From Escherichia phage AV126: DNA of 64,000 nucleotides. A program made the position numbers and the translations under genes. Positions 34,681-60,656 of this stretch are shown here, in pieces (positions within the stretch are counted from its first letter, which is position 1; every line of letters begins with the position of its first letter). The DNA lies in the sequence record OR352956.1; one strand, given 5' to 3'. The notes beneath the pieces were generated by a model. It saw nothing but the letters and a program-made list of their open reading frames with translations. It had not been told where the DNA came from and did not search any database.

Positions 34681-37353
34681 ATGTTTCCAATTCCAATATT
34701 TACTATTATGACCAGCACTGGTGTCGTTCCTCTGCCAGCAGGTATTGTTAAAAAAGTAATCACTTTAGATTACCCAGATAATGCTGGTAATTCTAATAGC
34801 AGTTTAGCAATTTTGCTTAATGATGGCAGATTGTTTACTCAAGGCGCAAACCTTTTTGGTGAGATTGCAGATGGAACTCGTAGTGCACGATTCAATAATT
34901 TCCACTTAGCTTCTACTGTAGTAGCGGATGTGTTTACCGCAGATCGTTGTTTTGTTATTAAAACTAACAGTGGGGGATGGCAATATTCAGGATTGACAGC
35001 AGGGTTAGTAGGATCTATAGCAGCAGGTGGGACGGATGCATGTGTAACTACTTGGACCAGCTTTCCATCTGTAATAACAGGGACTATCTCTTTAGCCAAT
35101 CTTAAAGAGGTTAAGGGAGGATATAACAACACTCTCTGGTTAATGAATAGTGGTGTTCTTTATGGATCGGGTCAAAACACAGTAGGCAGTTTAGGTGCAA
35201 GTACTACTAACGAAGTTTCTACTCCTCGTCAGATAACAAGTGCAGCAGTTGCTTTTGATGCAGGTTACAACCAATGCTCTTATGTCAACAATGTGGGAAC
35301 CTTGCGTGTTTGTGGAGCCAGCAAAGGTTTAGCAGGTAACAATAACACAACAAAAGCTTTTGTAAATGCTACGATATCCACTACTGAAACAGTGTATGTC
35401 AAAGATTACATCAATACCGTTTCCCAGACAATAGTTGTAGGAGATACCTCCGGCGGCACGGGTACAGTAAACTACTTATATGTTAGGTCTAATACAGAAA
35501 CAACCTACACTAAACTGGATACCTTTGCAGCAGGTTTCTCAACATGGAAGTTTCCACCAAGCCGCCACTCTTTTTTCGTTGGGATCAATAATTCCTTGTG
35601 GGCTATTGGTAAGAACTACACTGCAAACTTAGGTTTGGGGTATGATTCTGCGAGCGGAGATCCACTTCAAGTGGGAAAACCAGTTAAACCTGAAGGAGTG
35701 GGTTCCTGGGATATAAACAAGCTCACAAGCGTTCATACGCTGAATATGGATGTTACTAACCAATTAGGTTATCAAGGAACCTTTTTCGTTTATAATGGAG
35801 ATATGTATTATTCCGGTATTTGGAAAGATGGGAAAGCCTCGTATCTGTTCAATAGTGGTCTAAACTATAATAAATTCACACCAATAGCAAGCTCCGTGAT
35901 TACGGGTGATATTCTGGCAACTGGCTTAACTACAGATTCTTTAGGAATTTGTATTGTAGGTGGAACTAAACAGTTGACACATTCTGTTAGCCCAGAAGGA
36001 GGTAAACTTTTCAATATTAAATACACTTCTTCTGCCCCTGCAAACATGACAATATCATCTACTGGTTTAATGACTTTCCATGCAGAAGGTGGTTTTGATG
36101 CAGGTATGACAGCCTTAAACGCTGAAGGAACAACTTTATCAGATACCTCTGGAGGATATGCTTCAACATTGAGTGTTTACACCCCTAGCTTATCTGCGAT
36201 GGATGTAGGAACAACACAAACAATGGTAGCAGAAATAACGCCAACAGGAGCAGCAAGCTTACCTGGTATGGTTGTTGAGTATACAACTACAGATCCTAAT
36301 GTTGCTACAGTAGATCCTACAACTGGTGTAATAACTGGTGTTGGTGATGGTGGTTGTAGAATTGGTTGCACAGCTACGTATCAAGGTGTTGTTACCGCTT
36401 CTGATAGTTCTTATTTAACGGTGAACGCTGTTGCGGGAAAGGAGTTAGCTCCATCTCCGAGTAGTAGTCTAACGGTTCTAAACGGATATTTCAACCACTC
36501 GGCAGATGGGGCAATTACGTTCCCAATTTTATCGGGTACTGTCACACCAGCTAACTTTGTAGTTAAGGTGGATGACGTTGTAATACCTTCAAATAAAGTA
36601 ATATTTAGAAATAAAGCTTTCTCTACAGTGGATAGTTATCCAGCAGGAGAATATAGACTGGCTATTGAATTTGCAAGTGCTTCAGTAGTGAATAGTGTTG
36701 ATGTGTCTATGGAAGCAAATCCAGATCTTTTAGAATTATGGGGCGGCAACAGAATTGGTTATTCTACAAGCCCAGCCTCACAATTCTTAAAAGGTTGTGC
36801 TAACTTAAGACGAATAACTTCTGATTGTTTTAGTAACACATCTTACACCGGAACATCTATAAGTGGTATCTTCTCTGGCTGTACAAGTTTGACAGCTATC
36901 CCTGAAGGATTATTCAGTGATGCTTTATTTCCTTCAATGACAACAATGTCAAGCACGTTTGAAGGTTGTACATCTTTAACATCTATTCCTTCAGATTTAT
37001 TTAAGAATCTATCAAAAGTTACAAGATATTCTTACACCTTTAAAGATTGCACCTCTCTTGCAGAAGTTCCAGCAGGAATGTTTGATAATATTCCAACGAA
37101 AGTGACCTCTTTAACAGCTACATTCCAAGGTTGTTTAGGACTTACAGATTTTAATAAGATCTTTAATGACAACCCAGGGTTAACTGTTTGTGGTAAACGT
37201 GGAGCATTATCTTCTTTCTTTAGTGGATGCACAAATCTTACAGGAACAGGAACAACATTAACAAATACATTAGGCGGAGTAGCTAATAGTTACCTATTCA
37301 GGTATTGCACAAAACTTTCGGATTATAACAACATTCCTTCCGGTTATAAATAA
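34681..37353 (+). CDS. adhesin-like tail fibre protein with RCC1-like, Ig-like and BspA-type LRR repeats
   Basis: 890 aa; GGAGGG SD; N-terminal beta-propeller-like repeats, Ig-like segment (VATVDPTTGVITGVGDGG), C-terminal F.GCTSLT..P repeats. Confidence 0.55.
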   Translation: MFPIPIFTIMTSTGVVPLPAGIVKKVITLDYPDNAGNSNSSLAILLNDGRLFTQGANLFGEIADGTRSARFNNFHLASTVVADVFTADRCFVIKTNSGGWQYSGLTAGLVGSIAAGGTDACVTTWTSFPSVITGTISLANLKEVKGGYNNTLWLMNSGVLYGSGQNTVGSLGASTTNEVSTPRQITSAAVAFDAGYNQCSYVNNVGTLRVCGASKGLAGNNNTTKAFVNATISTTETVYVKDYINTVSQTIVVGDTSGGTGTVNYLYVRSNTETTYTKLDTFAAGFSTWKFPPSRHSFFVGINNSLWAIGKNYTANLGLGYDSASGDPLQVGKPVKPEGVGSWDINKLTSVHTLNMDVTNQLGYQGTFFVYNGDMYYSGIWKDGKASYLFNSGLNYNKFTPIASSVITGDILATGLTTDSLGICIVGGTKQLTHSVSPEGGKLFNIKYTSSAPANMTISSTGLMTFHAEGGFDAGMTALNAEGTTLSDTSGGYASTLSVYTPSLSAMDVGTTQTMVAEITPTGAASLPGMVVEYTTTDPNVATVDPTTGVITGVGDGGCRIGCTATYQGVVTASDSSYLTVNAVAGKELAPSPSSSLTVLNGYFNHSADGAITFPILSGTVTPANFVVKVDDVVIPSNKVIFRNKAFSTVDSYPAGEYRLAIEFASASVVNSVDVSMEANPDLLELWGGNRIGYSTSPASQFLKGCANLRRITSDCFSNTSYTGTSISGIFSGCTSLTAIPEGLFSDALFPSMTTMSSTFEGCTSLTSIPSDLFKNLSKVTRYSYTFKDCTSLAEVPAGMFDNIPTKVTSLTATFQGCLGLTDFNKIFNDNPGLTVCGKRGALSSFFSGCTNLTGTGTTLTNTLGGVANSYLFRYCTKLSDYNNIPSGYK
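36781..37340 (+). repeat. BspA-type leucine-rich repeats (coding, about six copies)
   Basis: Repeated FSGCTSLTAIP / FEGCTSLTSIP / FKDCTSLAEVP / FQGCLGLTDF / FSGCTNLTG / FRYCTKLSD units. Confidence 0.6.
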
Positions 37354-37355
37354 GA

Positions 37356-37385
37356 AAAGGAGCCATTTGGCTCCTTTCTTTTATA
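37356..37385. terminator. bidirectional terminator between convergent modules
   Basis: AAAGGAGCC-attt-GGCTCCTTT hairpin with T-rich flanks on both strands; between + strand stop (37353) and - strand ssb stop (37410). Confidence 0.7.
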
Positions 37386-37409
37386 AAAACTCTTTATAAA
37401 TCAATAAGA

Positions 37410-38297
37410 TCAGAACGGAATATCATCATCGAAGTCCATCGGAGGTTCTTCTTGATTACTTGGAGTTGGTTCTGGTTGTGGTTCAGGCTTTTTAACTTCT
37501 TTCTTCTCTTCTTTCTTAGGTTGTTCTGCGGAACCACGAATGGCAGCAGCAACTTTATCAGACAGAGCTAGAACTTTACGAGCAGAATCAATCAGATCTT
37601 CTACAGATACAGTCTTAATGGTATGGTCTTTACAAGCATTGAGGATAGCGTGACCAACAGATGCCCCAAGATCATAATCATTAATATCAACGCCACGAGA
37701 TTCAGCAATTTCAGATTTCAGCGTGACAGTTGCAGATTGAACAACCCCAGCGATATCGAAAGCATCGCCTTTAACACCATTACGAATCAGTTCCAGTGCA
37801 CCATTTACTGCGTGACCAGTTTCCAGACCTACAGTATCACGTTTTTTATAGGACTGTTTAGGAGCAGCATCGTTGGAACCTTTATTGCCAGAAGATTTGT
37901 TAGACTTCTGAACACCATCGGTAGACAATACTGTAATACGAGATTTTTTAGTATTGTAGTAAGTTTTACCGCCTTTATTATCAACGCGATCAATATCAAT
38001 ACTTACTTCTACACCTTTTTCAATAGTGATCCAGTTATCACCTTCTTTAACTTGCAGGTTTTCATAACCTTCTTTCAGTTCAATGTCACCAAGAGAAATC
38101 CAAACACCTTTCTCATCTGGTTTAGCACCTTTCTCTTTCAGAACAAGAGAAGCTCGGTGAGTTGAAACAATCGTTTTTCCTTCCCAATGAAAAGTTTTAG
38201 GTTCAGCGAATTTATCCAGTTTAACGTAGTCTACGATACCAGTTGCATAAGTTACGGTTTTGCCTTTACGATCAGTTTCAGTATTAATTACGGACAT
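37410..38297 (-). CDS. ssb: single-stranded DNA-binding protein
   Basis: 295 aa; AGAGGAG SD; Gly/Asn-rich linker and acidic tail ending MDFDDDIPF, identical to the E. coli SSB C-terminal tip. Confidence 0.85.
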   Translation of the reverse strand: MSVINTETDRKGKTVTYATGIVDYVKLDKFAEPKTFHWEGKTIVSTHRASLVLKEKGAKPDEKGVWISLGDIELKEGYENLQVKEGDNWITIEKGVEVSIDIDRVDNKGGKTYYNTKKSRITVLSTDGVQKSNKSSGNKGSNDAAPKQSYKKRDTVGLETGHAVNGALELIRNGVKGDAFDIAGVVQSATVTLKSEIAESRGVDINDYDLGASVGHAILNACKDHTIKTVSVEDLIDSARKVLALSDKVAAAIRGSAEQPKKEEKKEVKKPEPQPEPTPSNQEEPPMDFDDDIPF

Positions 38298-51410: not shown

Positions 51411-52013
51411 TTATGGACATTCATACCATTCTTTTTTACCACCGAAGGCCATCACCACATCGCAAATATCCAGACCAGCTTTACCTACACCATATGCTTT
51501 CAGTTTCCATTCCCCATCTTCACGAACCAAGGAAGCCACGTGGCAGATTGTGTTGCCAGCTACTTCAGGAGCTAGGAAGTCAAAATCCAGAATTTCCACA
51601 TTGCGCTCGGAGTCGAAGATTTTAAGCATACCTTCAGAAGCATGACCAAAACGTTTCAGACCTGTATCATCATCAATGGTCAGAACAAAGGCAATCTCTT
51701 GTGCATCAGGAGAGATTTTAGCCAGAGTAATATCAATCTGCTCCATGCTGCCAGTCCCATCACGAACATCGTCACCAGCGAAGGTAGAACGTTCAGGATC
51801 AAACTTGTTAGCATAGCAAACCAGATGACGTGCAGACAGCATTTCAGGATTGCCAGCGGCATTGTGACGACAAACCAGTGCACTTACATCCAGATCCAGT
51901 TTAGAATCAGATTTCCAAGAGAATTCCAGGCGCAGTTCTTTCAGAGCCGGAGCAACTTTCTTCAGGGAAATTTTTTCGCTAGAGCCTTTTTTCAGGGAAA
52001 TTTTATCATTCAT
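51411..52013 (-). CDS. terD: TerD-domain protein
   Basis: 200 aa; N-terminal duplicated motif MNDKISLKKGSSEKISLKK parallels the start of bacterial TerD; GDDVRDGTGS resembles TerD Ca-binding motif. Confidence 0.75.
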   Translation of the reverse strand: MNDKISLKKGSSEKISLKKVAPALKELRLEFSWKSDSKLDLDVSALVCRHNAAGNPEMLSARHLVCYANKFDPERSTFAGDDVRDGTGSMEQIDITLAKISPDAQEIAFVLTIDDDTGLKRFGHASEGMLKIFDSERNVEILDFDFLAPEVAGNTICHVASLVREDGEWKLKAYGVGKAGLDICDVVMAFGGKKEWYECP

Positions 52014-52028: not shown

Positions 52029-52298
52029 TTATTTAAGTGTAATACCAGTTACAGTCAATTCTACTTCCAAAAGCTTAGATGTGTTTTGGATTGCTACTAA
52101 TTGTGCATGATGGTTTAGTTCTACAGCAGAATAATCATTTTCCCCATCATCTACTTTTAAATAAACAATAACTTCACTAAGGTCTAAACCATTTTCGTCA
52201 AATGCATTTTCATAGACGAAAGTATCTCCTACATCCAAATCTTTAATGGTAAGGCATCGTTTATTTACTTTTTGCTCATCAATTTCGAAGTTTAACAC
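52029..52298 (-). CDS. small hypothetical protein (paralog B of 53320-53598)
   Basis: 89 aa; shares DL.VGDTF.Y..A.DE.GLD and C-terminal VELTVTGITLK with paralog A. Confidence 0.5.
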   Translation of the reverse strand: MLNFEIDEQKVNKRCLTIKDLDVGDTFVYENAFDENGLDLSEVIVYLKVDDGENDYSAVELNHHAQLVAIQNTSKLLEVELTVTGITLK

Positions 52299-52527
52299 TT
52301 CTTCCTCCTAATGTTATCTCCGGTTTGTATATACGAAGAATTATAGCATTTTCATTTTCTTTGTCAACCCATTCTTCATAATCGGGCCATACATGAATCT
52401 CTACTCTACTTACAATATTTTCCATCCGCACAGTCCCAATGAAATATTCTTTGAGACTGCGCATAATGAAAGCTTCTCTCTCGCGCCAATAATTTTCTAC
52501 GACTTGAGAGGCAAGCTCGTCGATCAT
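52279..52527 (-). CDS. hypothetical protein
   Basis: 82 aa; start overlaps vWA gene stop. Confidence 0.4.
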   Translation of the reverse strand: MIDELASQVVENYWREREAFIMRSLKEYFIGTVRMENIVSRVEIHVWPDYEEWVDKENENAIILRIYKPEITLGGRSVKLRN

Positions 52528-53318
52528 TTTTTAGCACCTACCTTAACAACCCACTCTCCGAACTCTTCAGATAAGAGTTTGTCATAAAGCTCTGAATCTG
52601 TCAAGTCTAAATCTTTAATGCCAATAAAACCAACATTGTCATAAGCATTTGCCAGTTCTTTCAGGAAGCTGAACTTCTCATTACCAACGCCAACCATGAA
52701 CCAATAGATAGGCTTATTCTTATTCTCTTCAATAAGACGACGAACAGCACTAGGATCACCATTCTCACCATCTGTCTGGAAGAATACAACACCAGGAGTA
52801 ACGTCAGCACCTGGTTCAGATACAGCTACAACTTTTTCACGCTCTACAGATACTGTTTCAGTTTTACCCAGCAGACGATTAAAGAAGCCTTTCTTTGGAG
52901 CCTCCTCTTGTACCACTTGTTTAGTGGTAACATATTTGGTAACAGTGCCAAAATACTCATCGTAGATATCTGCCATTACAGGGGCGTAATTTGTTCCACC
53001 TCCGATACGAACATTACGCATACATTTACCAACATAGTCATCGTAAACGTCTGCTGTTGCTGGAGTAAGCTCTTGAGAACTCGTATTGAAGGCCCACATG
53101 TCAATTTGTTCATTATCGTCGAACAGCATACCAAAAGGAAGCAGTTTGCCTACAAAATCACTCACTACCCCACGAGTATATAGACCATGCATACTACCAG
53201 AAATATCTAGAGCACATGCTACACGAAGAACAATCTTACCTTCATTCAGGTTCTTATTCTTTTTCAGAGAGAAAGCAAGGTTTTCTTGACGTTTTTTCAG
53301 GCTGATTTTCTCGGACAT
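52524..53318 (-). CDS. von Willebrand factor A domain protein (TerY-like)
   Basis: 264 aa; MIDAS motif DISGSM; N-terminus MSEKISLKK shares the EKISLKK motif with the TerD-like protein. Confidence 0.7.
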   Translation of the reverse strand: MSEKISLKKRQENLAFSLKKNKNLNEGKIVLRVACALDISGSMHGLYTRGVVSDFVGKLLPFGMLFDDNEQIDMWAFNTSSQELTPATADVYDDYVGKCMRNVRIGGGTNYAPVMADIYDEYFGTVTKYVTTKQVVQEEAPKKGFFNRLLGKTETVSVEREKVVAVSEPGADVTPGVVFFQTDGENGDPSAVRRLIEENKNKPIYWFMVGVGNEKFSFLKELANAYDNVGFIGIKDLDLTDSELYDKLLSEEFGEWVVKVGAKK

Positions 53319-53319
53319 A

Positions 53320-53598
53320 TTATTTCTCCTTCTTAAGTGTAATATTGGTAACTTCTAAATCTACTTCCACCATATTTGTATCTGGTGGGATGCAATGAGT
53401 ATAGCCTCGTTGTGCTAGTGATCCATTAATACAGATCGCACTGTTTGTGGAATTTTTAATGAACACCAAGTTACGGTAGGTATCCAACCCTGCGTCTTCA
53501 TAGGCATCATAATACATGAATGTGTCCCCTATGCCAAGGTCTTCGAAAGCAATAGGTAAATCCTGACACTTTTCTTCTTGAATATTGAATCTAAACAC
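53320..53598 (-). CDS. small hypothetical protein (paralog A of 52029-52298)
   Basis: GTG at 53598 after GAGGAGG SD gives 92 aa aligning end-to-end with paralog B; ORF-track start 53664 overlaps upstream gene. Confidence 0.45.
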   Translation of the reverse strand: MFRFNIQEEKCQDLPIAFEDLGIGDTFMYYDAYEDAGLDTYRNLVFIKNSTNSAICINGSLAQRGYTHCIPPDTNMVEVDLEVTNITLKKEK

Positions 53599-54154
53599 GC
53601 ATACCTCCTCTACCAATTTTGAAGCCCAAATCGTAAGCTTCCTTAGTGATCTTTTGTAACTCACTTATAGGAAGTGTTACAAGAGGATCATCTTCTTCAA
53701 TTTCCATCTTGTCATCTTCTGTTTCAATGAGAGTATTATGCACTTTGTGATAAGGGTTGTCAACACGTTTAAACTTATTCTTTTCTGTGCTGAAAAAACA
53801 ATCTGGATCTTCTTCACCATCACCCCAACCTTGGTTAGGATCTCCGTCAGATTGTTCTGTAGGGATTTCACCTGTAAAATACTCTTCCAGCACCATAGCG
53901 ATACCGTCCCTTGGATTCGAGGAATGCATTAAATCACAAACCTTACCCCAATCCATAGCCCATTCGAACCGTTCACGAACGCCATTTTCATTCTCCTTTC
54001 CAGAGAAAACACAACCATAACTATCATAGTTGCCATACATCTCTTCAATAACAACACCATCCTTCAAAAGAAAGAGATAGCAAGGTGATCCGTCGAAAGA
54101 AGTAGAAAGGGCAGCTTTGCCCGATTCCTTACACAAAAAGCTAAAACAACCCAT
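53591..54154 (-). CDS. hypothetical protein
   Basis: 187 aa, Cys-containing N-terminus, acidic C-terminal half. Confidence 0.45.
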   Translation of the reverse strand: MGCFSFLCKESGKAALSTSFDGSPCYLFLLKDGVVIEEMYGNYDSYGCVFSGKENENGVRERFEWAMDWGKVCDLMHSSNPRDGIAMVLEEYFTGEIPTEQSDGDPNQGWGDGEEDPDCFFSTEKNKFKRVDNPYHKVHNTLIETEDDKMEIEEDDPLVTLPISELQKITKEAYDLGFKIGRGGMRV

Positions 54155-54517: not shown

Positions 54518-54720
54518 TCTTCTTCCTCATTAAATTCCACATCAGAAATAACTTTAAATCTACCAAAGTTACGACAACCTTCATAGATATATCCATCACG
54601 ACAAGCTGCAAAAATATCTGGAGTTTGTAGCTGGGTCATTGGGGCAAAGCGTTTCTCTTCGTCATAACGAACACCTATTTCTCCAGCTTGTTCGTCAAGC
54701 ATGTATACACGGATTCTCAT
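54514..54720 (-). CDS. hypothetical protein
   Basis: 68 aa; ends EEEE; coupled to neighbours. Confidence 0.4.
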   Translation of the reverse strand: MRIRVYMLDEQAGEIGVRYDEEKRFAPMTQLQTPDIFAACRDGYIYEGCRNFGRFKVISDVEFNEEEE

Positions 54721-55829
54721 TTACCCAACCCCTTCTTAACAGCGTCAACCATCCCATCTTCGAGAGATTGAACTTCATTGATGTAATCAACACGGGCAGC
54801 ACGGGCTTCCGTATTGATGCGGTTAGTTTCTTCCAACATTTTAACCAAGTTTTCCTGATCGTGACGCAGAGTTTCAATATCCAACACTTGACGGTTAGCC
54901 AGTGCTGCTGCTTCGATCTGATTCTGTGTGGCAAGATCGCTACCCAGTTTAATTGCCAGGTTAAATTCATCAAGAACGTTATTCTGTGTCTCTGCGGCTT
55001 TCATTTGACGTAAGCTTTCAATATACATTGAGAAGTTAGCAGAGTAAGCAGGAATAACATTATTTACTATGTTACGCGCAGATCGCATTAAGCTTGCAGA
55101 AACTTTTTGCATACCTTGCACACGTGGTCCCATTTGGACACACAGTAGGCGCAATGCTTTTAAATCCGCAATACGAATCTCCAGAAGATCCAAGGTATCT
55201 CGGATCGCTTGTCGCTGTTCTACCGCATCTTCTGGAAGAGCAGCCAAAGCTTGTTCTTCTTTTTCATAGGTCGCTGTTAGAAGCTGCATATCTCGGTTCA
55301 AACTTGCAGCATATTGTCCAATAGCTTGATGTAGCTTTTCAAGGTATACCAAAGAATCTTCTTCTTTGCGAATATCCATTTGAAGGTTCTTTACCAACTC
55401 TTCAATACGGTTATTAACATTATCAAACTCCCCAAACAGGTCTTCTTTCATACCCATAACTTTTTTAATGAGTTTAGTAATACCCTTGCTTTGTTTAATA
55501 GAGTTTGGATCAAGTTGTTTTGCCTGTTTAATCAAAGCTGTGAGTCGTTCACTCATCTGATCGCCTTGATTACTACGTTGATGTTTTAATACCTCAGCAT
55601 TCAAGGAACGCAAGGTTGTTCCTGCCTCTGCCCCAATCTCTTCGATCTCTTGTCGGGTCATAGAAGGCAAAACTGGAACTTCTTGCGGTGCCGCTGGTGC
55701 ATAAACAGGACTGGCATCTAACACGCTTGGAGCGAATACAGATTTACTTGCATCTGTTGTTGCAGCGAATACACTCATTTCAGACTTCTTCTGACCACCA
55801 GTAGCTGCTTTTAAAAATGGACTTGTCAT
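54717..55829 (-). CDS. TelA-like helical protein
   Basis: 370 aa, Ala/Pro-rich N-terminus then long helical/coiled-coil body; assignment by size, composition and Ter context only. Confidence 0.35.
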   Translation of the reverse strand: MTSPFLKAATGGQKKSEMSVFAATTDASKSVFAPSVLDASPVYAPAAPQEVPVLPSMTRQEIEEIGAEAGTTLRSLNAEVLKHQRSNQGDQMSERLTALIKQAKQLDPNSIKQSKGITKLIKKVMGMKEDLFGEFDNVNNRIEELVKNLQMDIRKEEDSLVYLEKLHQAIGQYAASLNRDMQLLTATYEKEEQALAALPEDAVEQRQAIRDTLDLLEIRIADLKALRLLCVQMGPRVQGMQKVSASLMRSARNIVNNVIPAYSANFSMYIESLRQMKAAETQNNVLDEFNLAIKLGSDLATQNQIEAAALANRQVLDIETLRHDQENLVKMLEETNRINTEARAARVDYINEVQSLEDGMVDAVKKGLGK

Positions 55830-58041: not shown

Positions 58042-59016
58042 TTAAACAGCAGCTTCTTCTTTTTCAGGGAAGATAAAGCTTGCAATAACACCAAGAGCTA
58101 ATGTGCCTAGAACAATCATCAGACTTACGTTAGGGGAAATATCATGCGGGAGGAATGACCATTTGGCATGAAGTGTTTCACCGAACGGGTGATACATAAG
58201 TTTAGCACCAACAAACACCAGAACCACAGCAACAGCTTTCTCTAAGTGAACCAGATATTTCACAGCTACACTTAACACAAAGAAAAGTGCACGTAAACCA
58301 AGAACAGCCATCAGCATTGCAGAATAAACTAGCAGAGGTTCTTGTGTCACCCCGATCACAGCCGGAACTGAATCAAAAGAGAAGACAATATCTGTAAGCT
58401 CAATAACAAACACACAAAGAAGAGCAGGAGTTGCATATTTAATACCATTCTTAATGGTAATGAACTTTTCACCATCCAGTGCATTGTGCACAGGCAGAAC
58501 TTTACCTACTAAACGAACAGCCCAATGCTTAGAGTAATCAATATCCTCTTCTTCGTCACCACCTTTGATGATAGCCACGGCAGACCAGGCTACAATCAAA
58601 CCGAACAACACTTGGACCGACCAATGAAGGTTAAACAAAGCGGTGCCTGCTGCAACAAAAATACCTCGGAAGACAATGGCTCCTGCAATCCCCCAAAGTA
58701 AAATCTTATGTTGGAGATGTGTGCTCTTAATTCCAAAGCTTGCAAAAATTGCCATGAACACCATCAGGTTATCTACAGAAAGACTCTTTTCCAACACATA
58801 ACCACTTAGGAAAAGCGCGGCAAACTCTTTACCATGTTCTACCCAAATGAATGCGTAATATCCTAAAGCTAAAGCAATCCAAAAAACAGACCAAAGCAAA
58901 GCAGATTTAATTCCAATTTCTTTATTCTCTTTATGACCAAAGAAATCGATACCAATAGACAATGCCAAAATACCAACTAAAACAACTACATCAATAATTG
59001 GGAAACCGAGTTGCAT
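58042..59016 (-). CDS. terC: TerC-family integral membrane protein
   Basis: 324 aa, multiple TM segments; EKSLSVDNLMVF and FSFDSVPAVIGVT match the two TerC signature repeats. Confidence 0.75.
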   Translation of the reverse strand: MQLGFPIIDVVVLVGILALSIGIDFFGHKENKEIGIKSALLWSVFWIALALGYYAFIWVEHGKEFAALFLSGYVLEKSLSVDNLMVFMAIFASFGIKSTHLQHKILLWGIAGAIVFRGIFVAAGTALFNLHWSVQVLFGLIVAWSAVAIIKGGDEEEDIDYSKHWAVRLVGKVLPVHNALDGEKFITIKNGIKYATPALLCVFVIELTDIVFSFDSVPAVIGVTQEPLLVYSAMLMAVLGLRALFFVLSVAVKYLVHLEKAVAVVLVFVGAKLMYHPFGETLHAKWSFLPHDISPNVSLMIVLGTLALGVIASFIFPEKEEAAV

Positions 59017-59329: not shown

Positions 59330-59815
59330 TTAAAGTTTATAAATAGTCACATCGTGACCAGCTTTTACTAAAGTTTCTTTGATCATGACTTCAATGATAG
59401 CCCAATTACCTCCAGCATGACCTGCACCTATCATAGGTAGACCAATCTTATGTGCTGGCTGATCTCCTTTATCGTAATTGTGTAAGTCCATTGCCATAGC
59501 TGCAAGAGCATCATACAGCGCATCATAATCTAGTTGACGACCTTTACTATTGTATCCATAACGATACTGTCCATAAAGGTTGTATACCATAGGGTTAGGA
59601 TAATCTTCTGGTTCCCCTAAACTAAAAGAACCAAGCTTTTTCTGGTTTCCTGCTCCTGTAGCTAAATCTGCTTCGTATGCATATGGAAACGCATATTTTA
59701 TTTGTGGGGCAATGCCTGCCCCCATATTACACATACAGTTGCAACAATGAGCAATAACAGTTACTTCACCTGCTTTAGCGGCATCAATAAGATTACCTGT
59801 TTTCATTTTAAGCAT
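59330..59815 (-). CDS. macro-like domain protein (ADP-ribose binding/processing fold)
   Basis: ATG at 59815 after AGGAG SD; VTVIAHCCNCMCNMGAGIAPQI and KIGLPMIGAGHAGGNW align with macro motifs but with substitutions; 161 aa. Confidence 0.45.
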   Translation of the reverse strand: MLKMKTGNLIDAAKAGEVTVIAHCCNCMCNMGAGIAPQIKYAFPYAYEADLATGAGNQKKLGSFSLGEPEDYPNPMVYNLYGQYRYGYNSKGRQLDYDALYDALAAMAMDLHNYDKGDQPAHKIGLPMIGAGHAGGNWAIIEVMIKETLVKAGHDVTIYKL

Positions 59816-59828
59816 TTTTAGCTCCTTA

Positions 59829-60656
59829 TTACAGAATGTGTTGTTTTGTGTAACGATCCAAGAATTCAAAGTTTTCAGCATACTTTGCAATCCGATTGTA
59901 GCCTTCAGCTAAACAGCCGAAGAAAAGTTGTTCCACATAGTAGTGTGGCAATTGGCTAAGAATGATTTTGAAGTCTTCATGATTTTGGCCCATAAGATAC
60001 TTAATAGGACGAACAAGGCACTGTGCATCACGTTCTTCATTAATCATTTTAACAAACGCTTCTGGTGTATTAATGTAGTTAAAATTCAGTTTAGCTTCAG
60101 TATCTGCTTGATTACCTTCGTATTTTGCAAAATACAAGAAGTAAACATCATTTTTAACTTGATTTTCATCAAGAATCTCAATCAGTTTGTCTTCATGCGT
60201 TCCGGTGATATTTACATCATCAATGAACACCAACTTCTTATCACCCCAGAATTCTTTGTTGCAGTAGAATGTATCCCCATCAATAAGTTTCTTACGACTA
60301 GCTTTATCCAAGAAGCCATAATCGTTAATATAACTAACTTTACGATGAATAATATCCAGTTCTGCTGAACGACCTTGATCATATTGTGCTTGCAACATAT
60401 TAAAGTAATTAATAAAATGATCTGTCATCATTGTTGCAGCATTATGCACATGGTTATAAGGAGAAGGAATGATAACAAATTGTTCCCCAATATGTTTCAT
60501 TGCCACTTGAGCAAAAAACTGAAGTGCCAATTCTTTACCCATACGACGCGCAGCTTGGTTACTGCCAAATTTCAATTTTGAATAATCTTTGATATCAAAA
60601 GTAGCAGTTTCCAGGTCATCAAATTTATTTGCAAAAATTTGAGTTTGATTACGCAT
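59829..60656 (-). CDS. phosphoribosyltransferase-like protein (type I PRTase fold)
   Basis: 275 aa; KLVFIDDVNITGTH resembles PRPP-binding motif; does not resemble Prs. Confidence 0.45.
   Translation of the reverse strand: MRNQTQIFANKFDDLETATFDIKDYSKLKFGSNQAARRMGKELALQFFAQVAMKHIGEQFVIIPSPYNHVHNAATMMTDHFINYFNMLQAQYDQGRSAELDIIHRKVSYINDYGFLDKASRKKLIDGDTFYCNKEFWGDKKLVFIDDVNITGTHEDKLIEILDENQVKNDVYFLYFAKYEGNQADTEAKLNFNYINTPEAFVKMINEERDAQCLVRPIKYLMGQNHEDFKIILSQLPHYYVEQLFFGCLAEGYNRIAKYAENFEFLDRYTKQHIL

Follow-up and report, generated by a model that had tools for sequence, protein, structure and literature searches.

A duplicated family of small acidic phage proteins beside the vWA-TerF-like and TerD genes of the Ter module in Escherichia phage AV126

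Introduction

Ter gene clusters occur widely, in bacteria, on plasmids and in large phages, yet next to nothing is known of how their parts assemble. The modules carried by phages reportedly derive from the bacterial Ter system, a proposal said to go back to Anantharaman, Iyer and Aravind in 2012. Here we consider a cluster of this type in a 64,000-nucleotide (nt) stretch of Escherichia phage AV126 (sequence record OR352956.1), the whole of which we call the window. The cluster raises a simple question: why should it hold two similar small genes, one (S_B) next to the gene for a TerF-like von Willebrand factor A (vWA) protein and the other (S_A) next to the TerD gene, when the vWA and TerD proteins themselves begin almost identically? 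An earlier note on this DNA took the arrangement for a duplicated two-gene unit whose second member had become vWA in one place and TerD in the other, possibly with a common recognition tag at their N-termini.

Ter modules with TerC, TelA, TerD, a TerF-type vWA protein and PRTase/HAD components have been described in jumbo and related phages (Iyer et al. 2021, PMC7824862), and a further one in Klebsiella phage phiKp34 (PMC8386662). The parts of these papers drawn on here propose a membrane-proximal stress response or superinfection exclusion as the role of such modules in phages (PMC7824862, PMC8386662). Our analysis of the AV126 locus leads to a different account of the two small genes. S_A, S_B and their relatives, together called S, are in the reading that we consider probable an anciently duplicated, phage-only family of small acidic proteins of ~90 amino acids (aa), which accompanies the vWA-TerF-like/TerD pair as an accessory, optional but fixed in position, in the Ter modules of some large virulent phages.

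Results

Two small paralogs in a compact gene array

The suspicion that the two small open reading frames (ORFs) are paralogs proved justified. S_A and S_B align end to end with 31/93 identities (33%; BLASTP E=8e-15, with S_B read from the GTG at 53598), the alignment takes in both DL.(I/V)GDTF.Y and the C-terminal VE(V)(D/E)L.VT.ITLK, and both proteins match phrog_11278 (S_B, E=1.6e-49 over 1-92 of 92 positions; S_A, E=3.2e-44 over 1-89 of 92). A hidden Markov model (HMM) of the family recovered only these two members in the 64-kb window and no third copy. Acidity is a constant of the family: the isoelectric point lies between 4.3 and 5.3 in 20/20 members (4.4 for S_B, 4.3 for S_A).

Both gene calls are backed by ribosome-binding signals. 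The Shine-Dalgarno (SD) sequence GAGGAGG lies 4 nt 5' of GTG 53598, and all homologs begin with M(F/L)xF at this point, for which reasons we take this GTG to be the real start of S_B; a 114-aa reading from 53664 is not supported, given that the SD, the homolog starts and the annotation of phage phAPEC8 all favour GTG 53598. The SD of S_A, AGGAGG, precedes GTG 52298. The array is tightly packed, with a strong SD before every gene. The start of S_B overlaps the stop of a 187-aa gene by 8 nt and its end lies 1 nt before the vWA start; the vWA stop overlaps the start of an 82-aa ORF as ATGA, this ORF overlaps S_A by 20 nt, and 15 nt separate the end of S_A from the TerD start. Each small gene is thus immediately 5' of its larger neighbour, as had been noticed, while the 82-aa ORF between vWA and S_A had been overlooked (Table 1). 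Orthologs of the 82-aa ORF were found only in phAPEC8 and PsgM04F and are absent from phi92 and Klebsiella phage 05F01; the ORF is restricted to genomes with both S copies and holds a promoter-like site. The idea that it or the 187-aa protein belongs to a larger duplicated block was rejected, neither having a paralog in the window.

Both small genes are under purifying selection. At genus-level distances, the ratio of nonsynonymous to synonymous substitution rates (dN/dS) of S_B against phi92 and PsgM04F is 0.17-0.24, compared with 0.07-0.15 for vWA and TerD, and S_A evolves faster (dN 0.52 against PsgM04F).

Two candidate promoters accompany the array (Table 1). The one 5' of S_A is the single perfect TTGACA-N16-TATAAT in the 64-kb window, where 0.08 would be expected, and it is conserved in place in phAPEC8, PsgM04F and locus L010 (L numbers denote the loci compared here) though its flanks diverge; the part of the phAPEC8 record examined carries no promoter annotation at the equivalent position. 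In phi92, which is without S_A, the vWA-TerD spacer contains TTGACT-17-TAAAAT. The pattern 5' of S_B recurs at the same place in phAPEC8, phi92, PsgM04F and L010, always inside conserved coding sequence, so its conservation is ambiguous. The two sites suggest an organization in two promoter-led pairs, S_B-vWA and S_A-TerD.

S has been found only beside vWA and TerD

By tblastn, S is present in 126 isolated phage records, essentially all of them Stephanstirmvirinae and annotated as hypothetical, while vWA-TerF-like proteins are found in 205 phage records, including Caulobacter, Brevundimonas, Rhizobium, Pseudomonas and Bacillus phages. Protein searches beyond the isolated phages, one word-indexed over 5.8 billion proteins and one an exhaustive HMM search of 1.84 billion representatives, added ~15 credible divergent relatives, all of 87-93 aa. 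Two of these divergent members (P0085 and P0100) had no tblastn match in isolated phages, and a related-locus search seeded with the divergent subgroup returned no relatives.

In every context examined S lies beside vWA and/or TerD, and it was never seen apart from the pair. Four arrangements recur: vWA-S-TerD in L009, L012, L015 and L074, with which the partial contigs L008 and L011 are consistent; S-vWA-TerD in phi92, Klebsiella phage 05F01, L073 and L078; S-vWA-82aa-S-TerD in the window, phAPEC8, PsgM04F and L010/L070; and vWA-S-S-TerD, an independent tandem duplication, in L013 and L014 (the tandem genes of this uncultured phage occupy 1180-1452 and 1462-1725 of L013).

Searches with so small a profile call for care. 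The 92-column S profile also scored giant proteins of 1,000-5,700 aa, each through 3-13 short stretches, among them giant Ig-repeat adhesins (P0073, P0074, P0079 and others) with apparent E-values down to 3e-19. We rejected these as homologs: the hits fall in Ig-like repeat families that are unrelated (He_PIG, Big_9, cadherin-like, HYR and DUF11), and their scores are an artefact that arises when many short strand matches of the "GDTF.Y..D..G" type are added up, which calls for caution with any small beta-rich profile. Some record labels are likewise misleading. MG065650 (Campylobacter phage B15), MG065639 (A150) and MG065656 (C3) carry S at 94.6% or 62% identity and vWA at 66.5% identity to the window; their Campylobacter jejuni host labels look doubtful, these identities matching E. 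coli Phapecoctavirus/Justusliebigvirus records. L018 (JAEZZU010000159.1, labelled 'MAG: Proteobacteria bacterium'), which encodes TerD, the two S copies and a vWA 98% identical to that of the window, is a piece of a Phapecoctavirus genome wrongly assigned to a bacterial metagenome-assembled genome.

The same slots can hold something else. A 110/116-aa family with the signature IYENVPE...VV(T/S)GF lies at 4653-4985 of L005 and 5744-6094 of L006, upstream of vWA in one and in the vWA-TerD gap in the other.

The small gene was duplicated more than once

S_B orthologs were identified in phi92, Klebsiella phage 05F01, PsgM04F and L010, and S_A orthologs in PsgM04F and L010; the vWA-S-TerD slot in which S_A lies is also used by family members of greater divergence. 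Between genera, S_B orthologs are 56-64% identical and S_A orthologs 44-45%, as against 32-36% for S_A and S_B of the same genome. Because cross-genus orthologs are more alike than paralogs within a genome, the duplication would predate the split between Phapecoctavirus and the PsgM04F-like phages. Together with the tandem copies of L013/L014, this indicates that the S gene was duplicated at least twice, independently, once in the window lineage and once in theirs. The vWA-TerD gap is probably the ancestral slot, since most single-copy lineages have S there. S_B would then be a duplicate that was relocated upstream of vWA before the Phapecoctavirus/PsgM04F-like split, and the phi92-like phages may later have lost S_A along with the 82-aa ORF. 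It was the small gene alone that was duplicated, within an already existing vWA-TerD array.

S is probably an SH3-like barrel

We found no characterised relative of S, and its sequence gave no match in Pfam, PADLOC or the PDB (best PDB chain E=0.2). S as a fragment of TerD or vWA was rejected (hhalign probability 0.1-0.2%). With an alignment of 11 sequences, AlphaFold2 (AF2) produced a best model with a predicted local distance difference test score (pLDDT) of 81, the other four models scoring 40-64. On this moderate-confidence model S is probably a small SH3-like beta-barrel, an assignment that we regard as tentative. The likeness to known SH3-like barrels (ribosomal L2 C-terminal domain, KOW, Tudor, FeoA, EF-P domain I) comes with sequence identities of just 3-19%; it is one of fold only and transfers no function. 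In BFVD, a fold search with S retrieved the phAPEC8 paralog and uncharacterised small phage proteins.

vWA and TerD are separate families

The partner proteins do not share an origin that could match that of the small genes. vWA matches PF10138 with 129.2 bits (cutoff 29.4); its AF2 model has a pLDDT of 91, the top Foldseek matches in the PDB are BON1 copine, integrin I domains and RGLG vWA, and the residues D38, S40, G41 and S42 of the metal-ion-dependent adhesion site (MIDAS) are invariant in 31 homologs. It has a classical MIDAS-bearing vWA fold. TerD matches PF02342 with 98.9 bits (cutoff 25.3) and aligns to the solved beta-sandwich structures 2KXT/2KXV (E=1.5e-15; residues 5-183 on 3-180 of 2KXT) and 3IBZ. 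When the two profiles were compared with hhalign, only the first 22 columns aligned (50% identity, E=0.0011 for a single comparison, probability 21%), which, with the different Pfam families and folds, gives no homology between the proteins. The vWA-TerD pair occurs without the small gene in many phages and bacteria, and both families are widespread in bacteria; the pair is far older and wider than S.

The vWA model also displays a ~45-residue insertion (residues 125-169) that forms a long two-stranded beta-arm. Near the tip of this arm is the motif KGFFxxLLGK, and G144, F145 and G151 are near-invariant across the 31 homologs; the arm could be a membrane- or partner-contacting loop.

A shared N-terminal segment that co-varies between vWA and TerD

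vWA starts with MSEKISLKK and TerD with MNDKISLKK, a likeness that the earlier note had pointed out and that is real: neither KISLKK nor the double h-x-L-x-K pattern occurs anywhere else in the 57,218 six-frame ORF residues of the window. In TerD the segment, KISLKKGSSEKISLKK, is covered by the Pfam match, which begins at residue 5, and its counterpart in the alignment with 2KXT is VSLSKGG--NVSLSK. In vWA the corresponding KISLKKRQENLAFSLKK lies before the start of the Pfam model (residue 31), yet few stretches of this family are better conserved: the 31 homologs, bacterial ones included, all keep K9 and K20, while L7 and L18 are near-invariant. Firmicutes (LISLSKTATISLDKKGL) and Actinobacteria (LLDLTKRAAVSLEKRGL) have units of the same kind ahead of the vWA core; such units are found in stand-alone proteins of bacteria and, sometimes as three copies, in the linker that joins TerD and vWA in fusion proteins. 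The motif is canonical in TerD and conserved across vWA-TerF-like proteins, bacteria included; it is ancient and intrinsic to both families, and neither a phage-specific tag nor tied to S.

Within a genome, the first units of the two proteins track each other. Written as vWA / TerD, they are KISLKK / KISLKK in the window, KVSLKK / KVSLKK in L012, L075 and L079, KLNLQK / KLNLEK in L007, KLSLKK / KLALKK in L013, VINLAK / TINLSK in phage CcrPW (L016), AINLQK / AINLEK in L019, ALSLQK / ALNLKK in L089, NLSLEK / ALTLEK in L083 and DFDLAK / DFDLSK in L117; L118 is also among the loci with co-varying units. When vWA-TerD pairings were shuffled 50,000 times among 17 conservatively chosen lineages, the observed similarity of 168 (shuffled mean 85) was reached in 0/50,000 shuffles, and leaving out the DFDL case gave p=2e-5; the lineages being related, the independent events are fewer than 17, with at least five or six distinct matched states visible. 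The co-variation holds in S-less phages too, and in the few bacterial loci examined the paired units are alike by eye.

Gene conversion as the source of the shared N-terminus was rejected. Codons at identical vWA/TerD residues match in 66/122 cases against 62 expected from gene-wide usage, and the Ser codons of the shared segment differ (AGC/AGT in vWA, TCC/TCA in TerD); with codon identity at expectation, the likeness reflects co-evolution at the protein level. Residues 7-20 of vWA form an alpha-helix in the AF2 monomer model (pLDDT 94), and the TerD copy sits in a domain aligned to beta-sandwich structures. This helix, which comes from a monomer prediction, and the lack of a score with the Pfam TerD model speak against a TerD-like beta-hairpin at the vWA N-terminus, though one may still form.

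The surrounding Ter cluster

The window comes from a phAPEC8-like coliphage (Phapecoctavirus, Stephanstirmvirinae); its region at 51.0-56.5 kb shares 96.6-98.6% identity with E. coli phages of this type, and the phAPEC8 gene calls agree with the window ORFs, the small genes being annotated there as 279 nt and 270 nt. A Pfam search identified on the minus strand a Ter-type cluster of PRTase_3, Macro-like, TerC, TelA, vWA-TerF-like and TerD genes, and the PRTase_3, TerC, TelA, vWA-TerF-like and TerD matches that characterise a Ter system all fall within 51.4-60.7 kb (Table 1). PADLOC models matched none of the seven proteins searched. In phAPEC8, phosphatase and hydrolase genes are annotated just past the equivalent Ter region. 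The next gene after TerD in the window is an endolysin gene; in phi92 the TerD-endolysin gap holds an extra 200-aa gene, gp171 (6788-7390 of L002), which has no counterpart in the window and does not resemble TerD (19% identity in a poor alignment); the equivalent position in L005 holds a 207-aa gene. The GC skew turns from positive to negative near 37 kb (about 36000-38000), and all ORFs examined further downstream, at ~45-60 kb, lie on the minus strand, consistent with a switch in transcription direction.

Table 1. Positions of the Ter cluster genes, the small genes and associated sequence elements in the window
Feature	Position	Strand	Details
PRTase_3	59829-60656	-	PF15610 E=1.5e-41
Macro-like, weak	59330-59890	-	PF01661 E=4e-4, below gathering score
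PRTase_3 with weak Macro match	59330-60656	-	nucleotide-derivative arm of the Ter cluster
TerC membrane protein	58042-59016	-	PF03741 E=3e-40
TelA	54717-55829	-	PF05816 E=1.7e-33
187-aa conserved hypothetical protein	53591-54154	-	phrog_14928; orthologs 5' of S_B in phAPEC8, phi92 and PsgM04F
Candidate promoter TTGACA-17-CATAAT	53735-53763	-	11/12; ~140 nt 5' of S_B, inside the 187-aa gene
S_B, 92 aa	53320-53598	-	phrog_11278; GTG start; directly upstream of the vWA gene
vWA-TerF-like, 264 aa	52524-53318	-	PF10138 E=2.8e-37; MIDAS DxSGS at residues 38-42
vWA N-terminal pre-domain segment KISLKKRQENLAFSLKK	53259-53309	-	residues 4-20; two h-x-L-x-K units
vWA beta-arm insertion (AF2)	52812-52946		residues 125-169
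82-aa ORF	52279-52527	-	phrog_22387 E=5.8e-57; between vWA and S_A
Candidate sigma-70 promoter TTGACA-16-TGcTATAAT	52340-52367	-	12/12, extended -10; in the 82-aa ORF, 41 nt 5' of the S_A start
S_A, 89 aa	52029-52298	-	phrog_11278; GTG start; directly upstream of TerD, the family's common slot
TerD-domain protein, 200 aa	51411-52013	-	PF02342 E=3.2e-28, residues 5-179
TerD N-terminus KISLKKGSSEKISLKK	51957-52004	-	residues 4-19; canonical first segment of the TerD domain

Discussion

Our results favour a model in which S_A and S_B are accessory proteins of the vWA-TerD pair. Because of the tight spacing, the strong SD sequences and the sigma-70-like sites upstream of each pair, S_B would be co-expressed with vWA and S_A with TerD. 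Context, size, charge and the tentative fold together lead us to propose that S is a binding protein (a small adaptor, chaperone or regulator of vWA/TerD assembly) and not an enzyme.

Several observations pull the other way, and the idea that competes with ours is that S_A and S_B are 'moron'-type genes, with roles in host takeover or anti-defence for example, that sit in permissive slots of the Ter module and are functionally unlinked to vWA and TerD. Adjacency in phage genomes can merely reflect permissive insertion slots. S is dispensable for the Ter module and patchily distributed: the syntenic TelA...vWA...TerD...endolysin loci L005-L007, L071 and L075-L084 lack it (although L078, within this range, counts above among the S-bearing loci), including the close relatives L071 (vWA 69% identical) and L075-L082, and S was found neither in Caulobacter jumbo phages, CcrPW among them, nor in any of the bacterial loci retrieved by the vWA profile (absent from 51/51). 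In L005 and L006 the unrelated 110/116-aa family uses the two S slots, one in each. S also has a borderline match to phrog_7832 (E=3e-4), and in BFVD its fold matches small proteins from many other phages (E 7e-4 to 0.1), mostly podoviruses and jumbo phages; given these weak links, S may belong to a general class of small phage barrels with no tie to Ter. Proteins that are small and acidic abound in the early regions of phages, and S evolves faster than its neighbours. Moreover, the polarity of the duplications derives from a neighbour-joining tree on about 87 columns, and the candidate promoters are consensus matches only. Genes that merely use a permissive slot would, however, have to account for a linkage that holds across ~11 contexts and identities down to 22-30%, in which S never occurs away from vWA/TerD, for the retention of both copies near the pair after each of two independent duplications, and for the lack of S members at any further place in the 64-kb window or in contexts of another kind. 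We therefore think it fairly unlikely, although it is the main rival, that S is unconnected with its neighbours.

A rather doubtful idea is that the N-terminal segments are a shared docking or arm-exchange element: the vWA arm would occupy the same site as the TerD N-terminal segment, on the TerD core or on a shared partner such as TelA/TerC, and so couple both proteins. This would explain arms that have to stay alike within a genome, and in phages with S the acidic S proteins would cap or chaperone the basic arm, one paralog per partner. A somewhat less probable proposal makes S the dedicated reader of the segment, each acidic S binding the basic h-x-L-x-K stretch of the protein encoded downstream (S_B that of vWA, S_A that of TerD) as its own chaperone or assembly regulator. 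The charges are complementary (-2 to -11 for S, +5 for the vWA/TerD N-terminal segments), the window has one S copy per tagged partner, the tag is conserved and co-evolving, and SH3-like barrels commonly bind short peptides or strands. Conservation and co-variation of the tag are, however, equally strong in phages and bacteria without S, in most S-bearing phages a single S would have to serve two tagged proteins, and the tag is nearly invariant among S-bearing lineages. Of the common recognition tag that had been suggested, what stands is the co-evolution of the motif between vWA and TerD; what falls is its status as an added tag, the motif being intrinsic to each family and behaving in the same way where S is absent.

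The duplication of an ancestral unit of small gene plus partner, followed by divergence of the partner into vWA and TerD, is hardly credible any longer, despite the parallel layouts of S_B-vWA and S_A-TerD, the (E/D)KISLKK opening of both partners and the sigma-70-like site 5' of each pair, since the partners differ in Pfam family and fold, which already refutes it, align in 22 N-terminal hhalign columns only at a probability of 21%, and form a pair that predates S and is found with none, one or tandem S. The observation behind this idea was correct and not due to chance; its evolutionary reading was wrong for vWA and TerD.

Returning to S as an accessory of the vWA-TerD pair, the family is a candidate extra component of the Ter system, restricted to phages and with its sole known address beside vWA and TerD, and two 90-aa proteins make a cheap experimental handle on the phage module. 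Of greatest interest among the side results is that the vWA and TerD N-termini co-evolve within genomes: a conserved segment common to two unrelated Ter proteins, co-varying at the protein and not the DNA level, points to a shared docking function and gives a testable hint that TerD and TerF-type vWA proteins touch each other or a common partner. Should neither lead hold, what is left is a hypothetical gene that was duplicated in one lineage, within a phage Ter cluster of a known kind.

Compared with published phage Ter modules, the window has the same core genes (PRTase_3, TerC, TelA, vWA-TerF-like and TerD), and it shares the order TelA...vWA...TerD with many phage contigs. The parts of the published descriptions drawn on here mention neither a small SH3-like gene beside vWA/TerD nor N-terminal co-variation (PMC7824862, PMC8386662). 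S differs from the Ter core in being present in a subset of phages only and absent from the bacterial loci examined. Its closest precedent is phrog_11278, a function-less entry of PHROGs v4 that both window proteins match end to end and that comes without context annotation; relative to this entry, the paralogy of S, its fixed linkage to vWA/TerD and its wider metagenomic membership come from the present analysis. Finally, the window vWA shares PF10138 with bacterial TerF, in which TerD is fused to a vWA-TerF-like domain, and the h-x-L-x-K units that open the phage protein sit in the pre-vWA linker of TerF-type fusions such as P0062 and P0064. Unlike bacterial TerF, the phage protein stands alone beside a separate TerD gene and carries the ~45-residue beta-arm.

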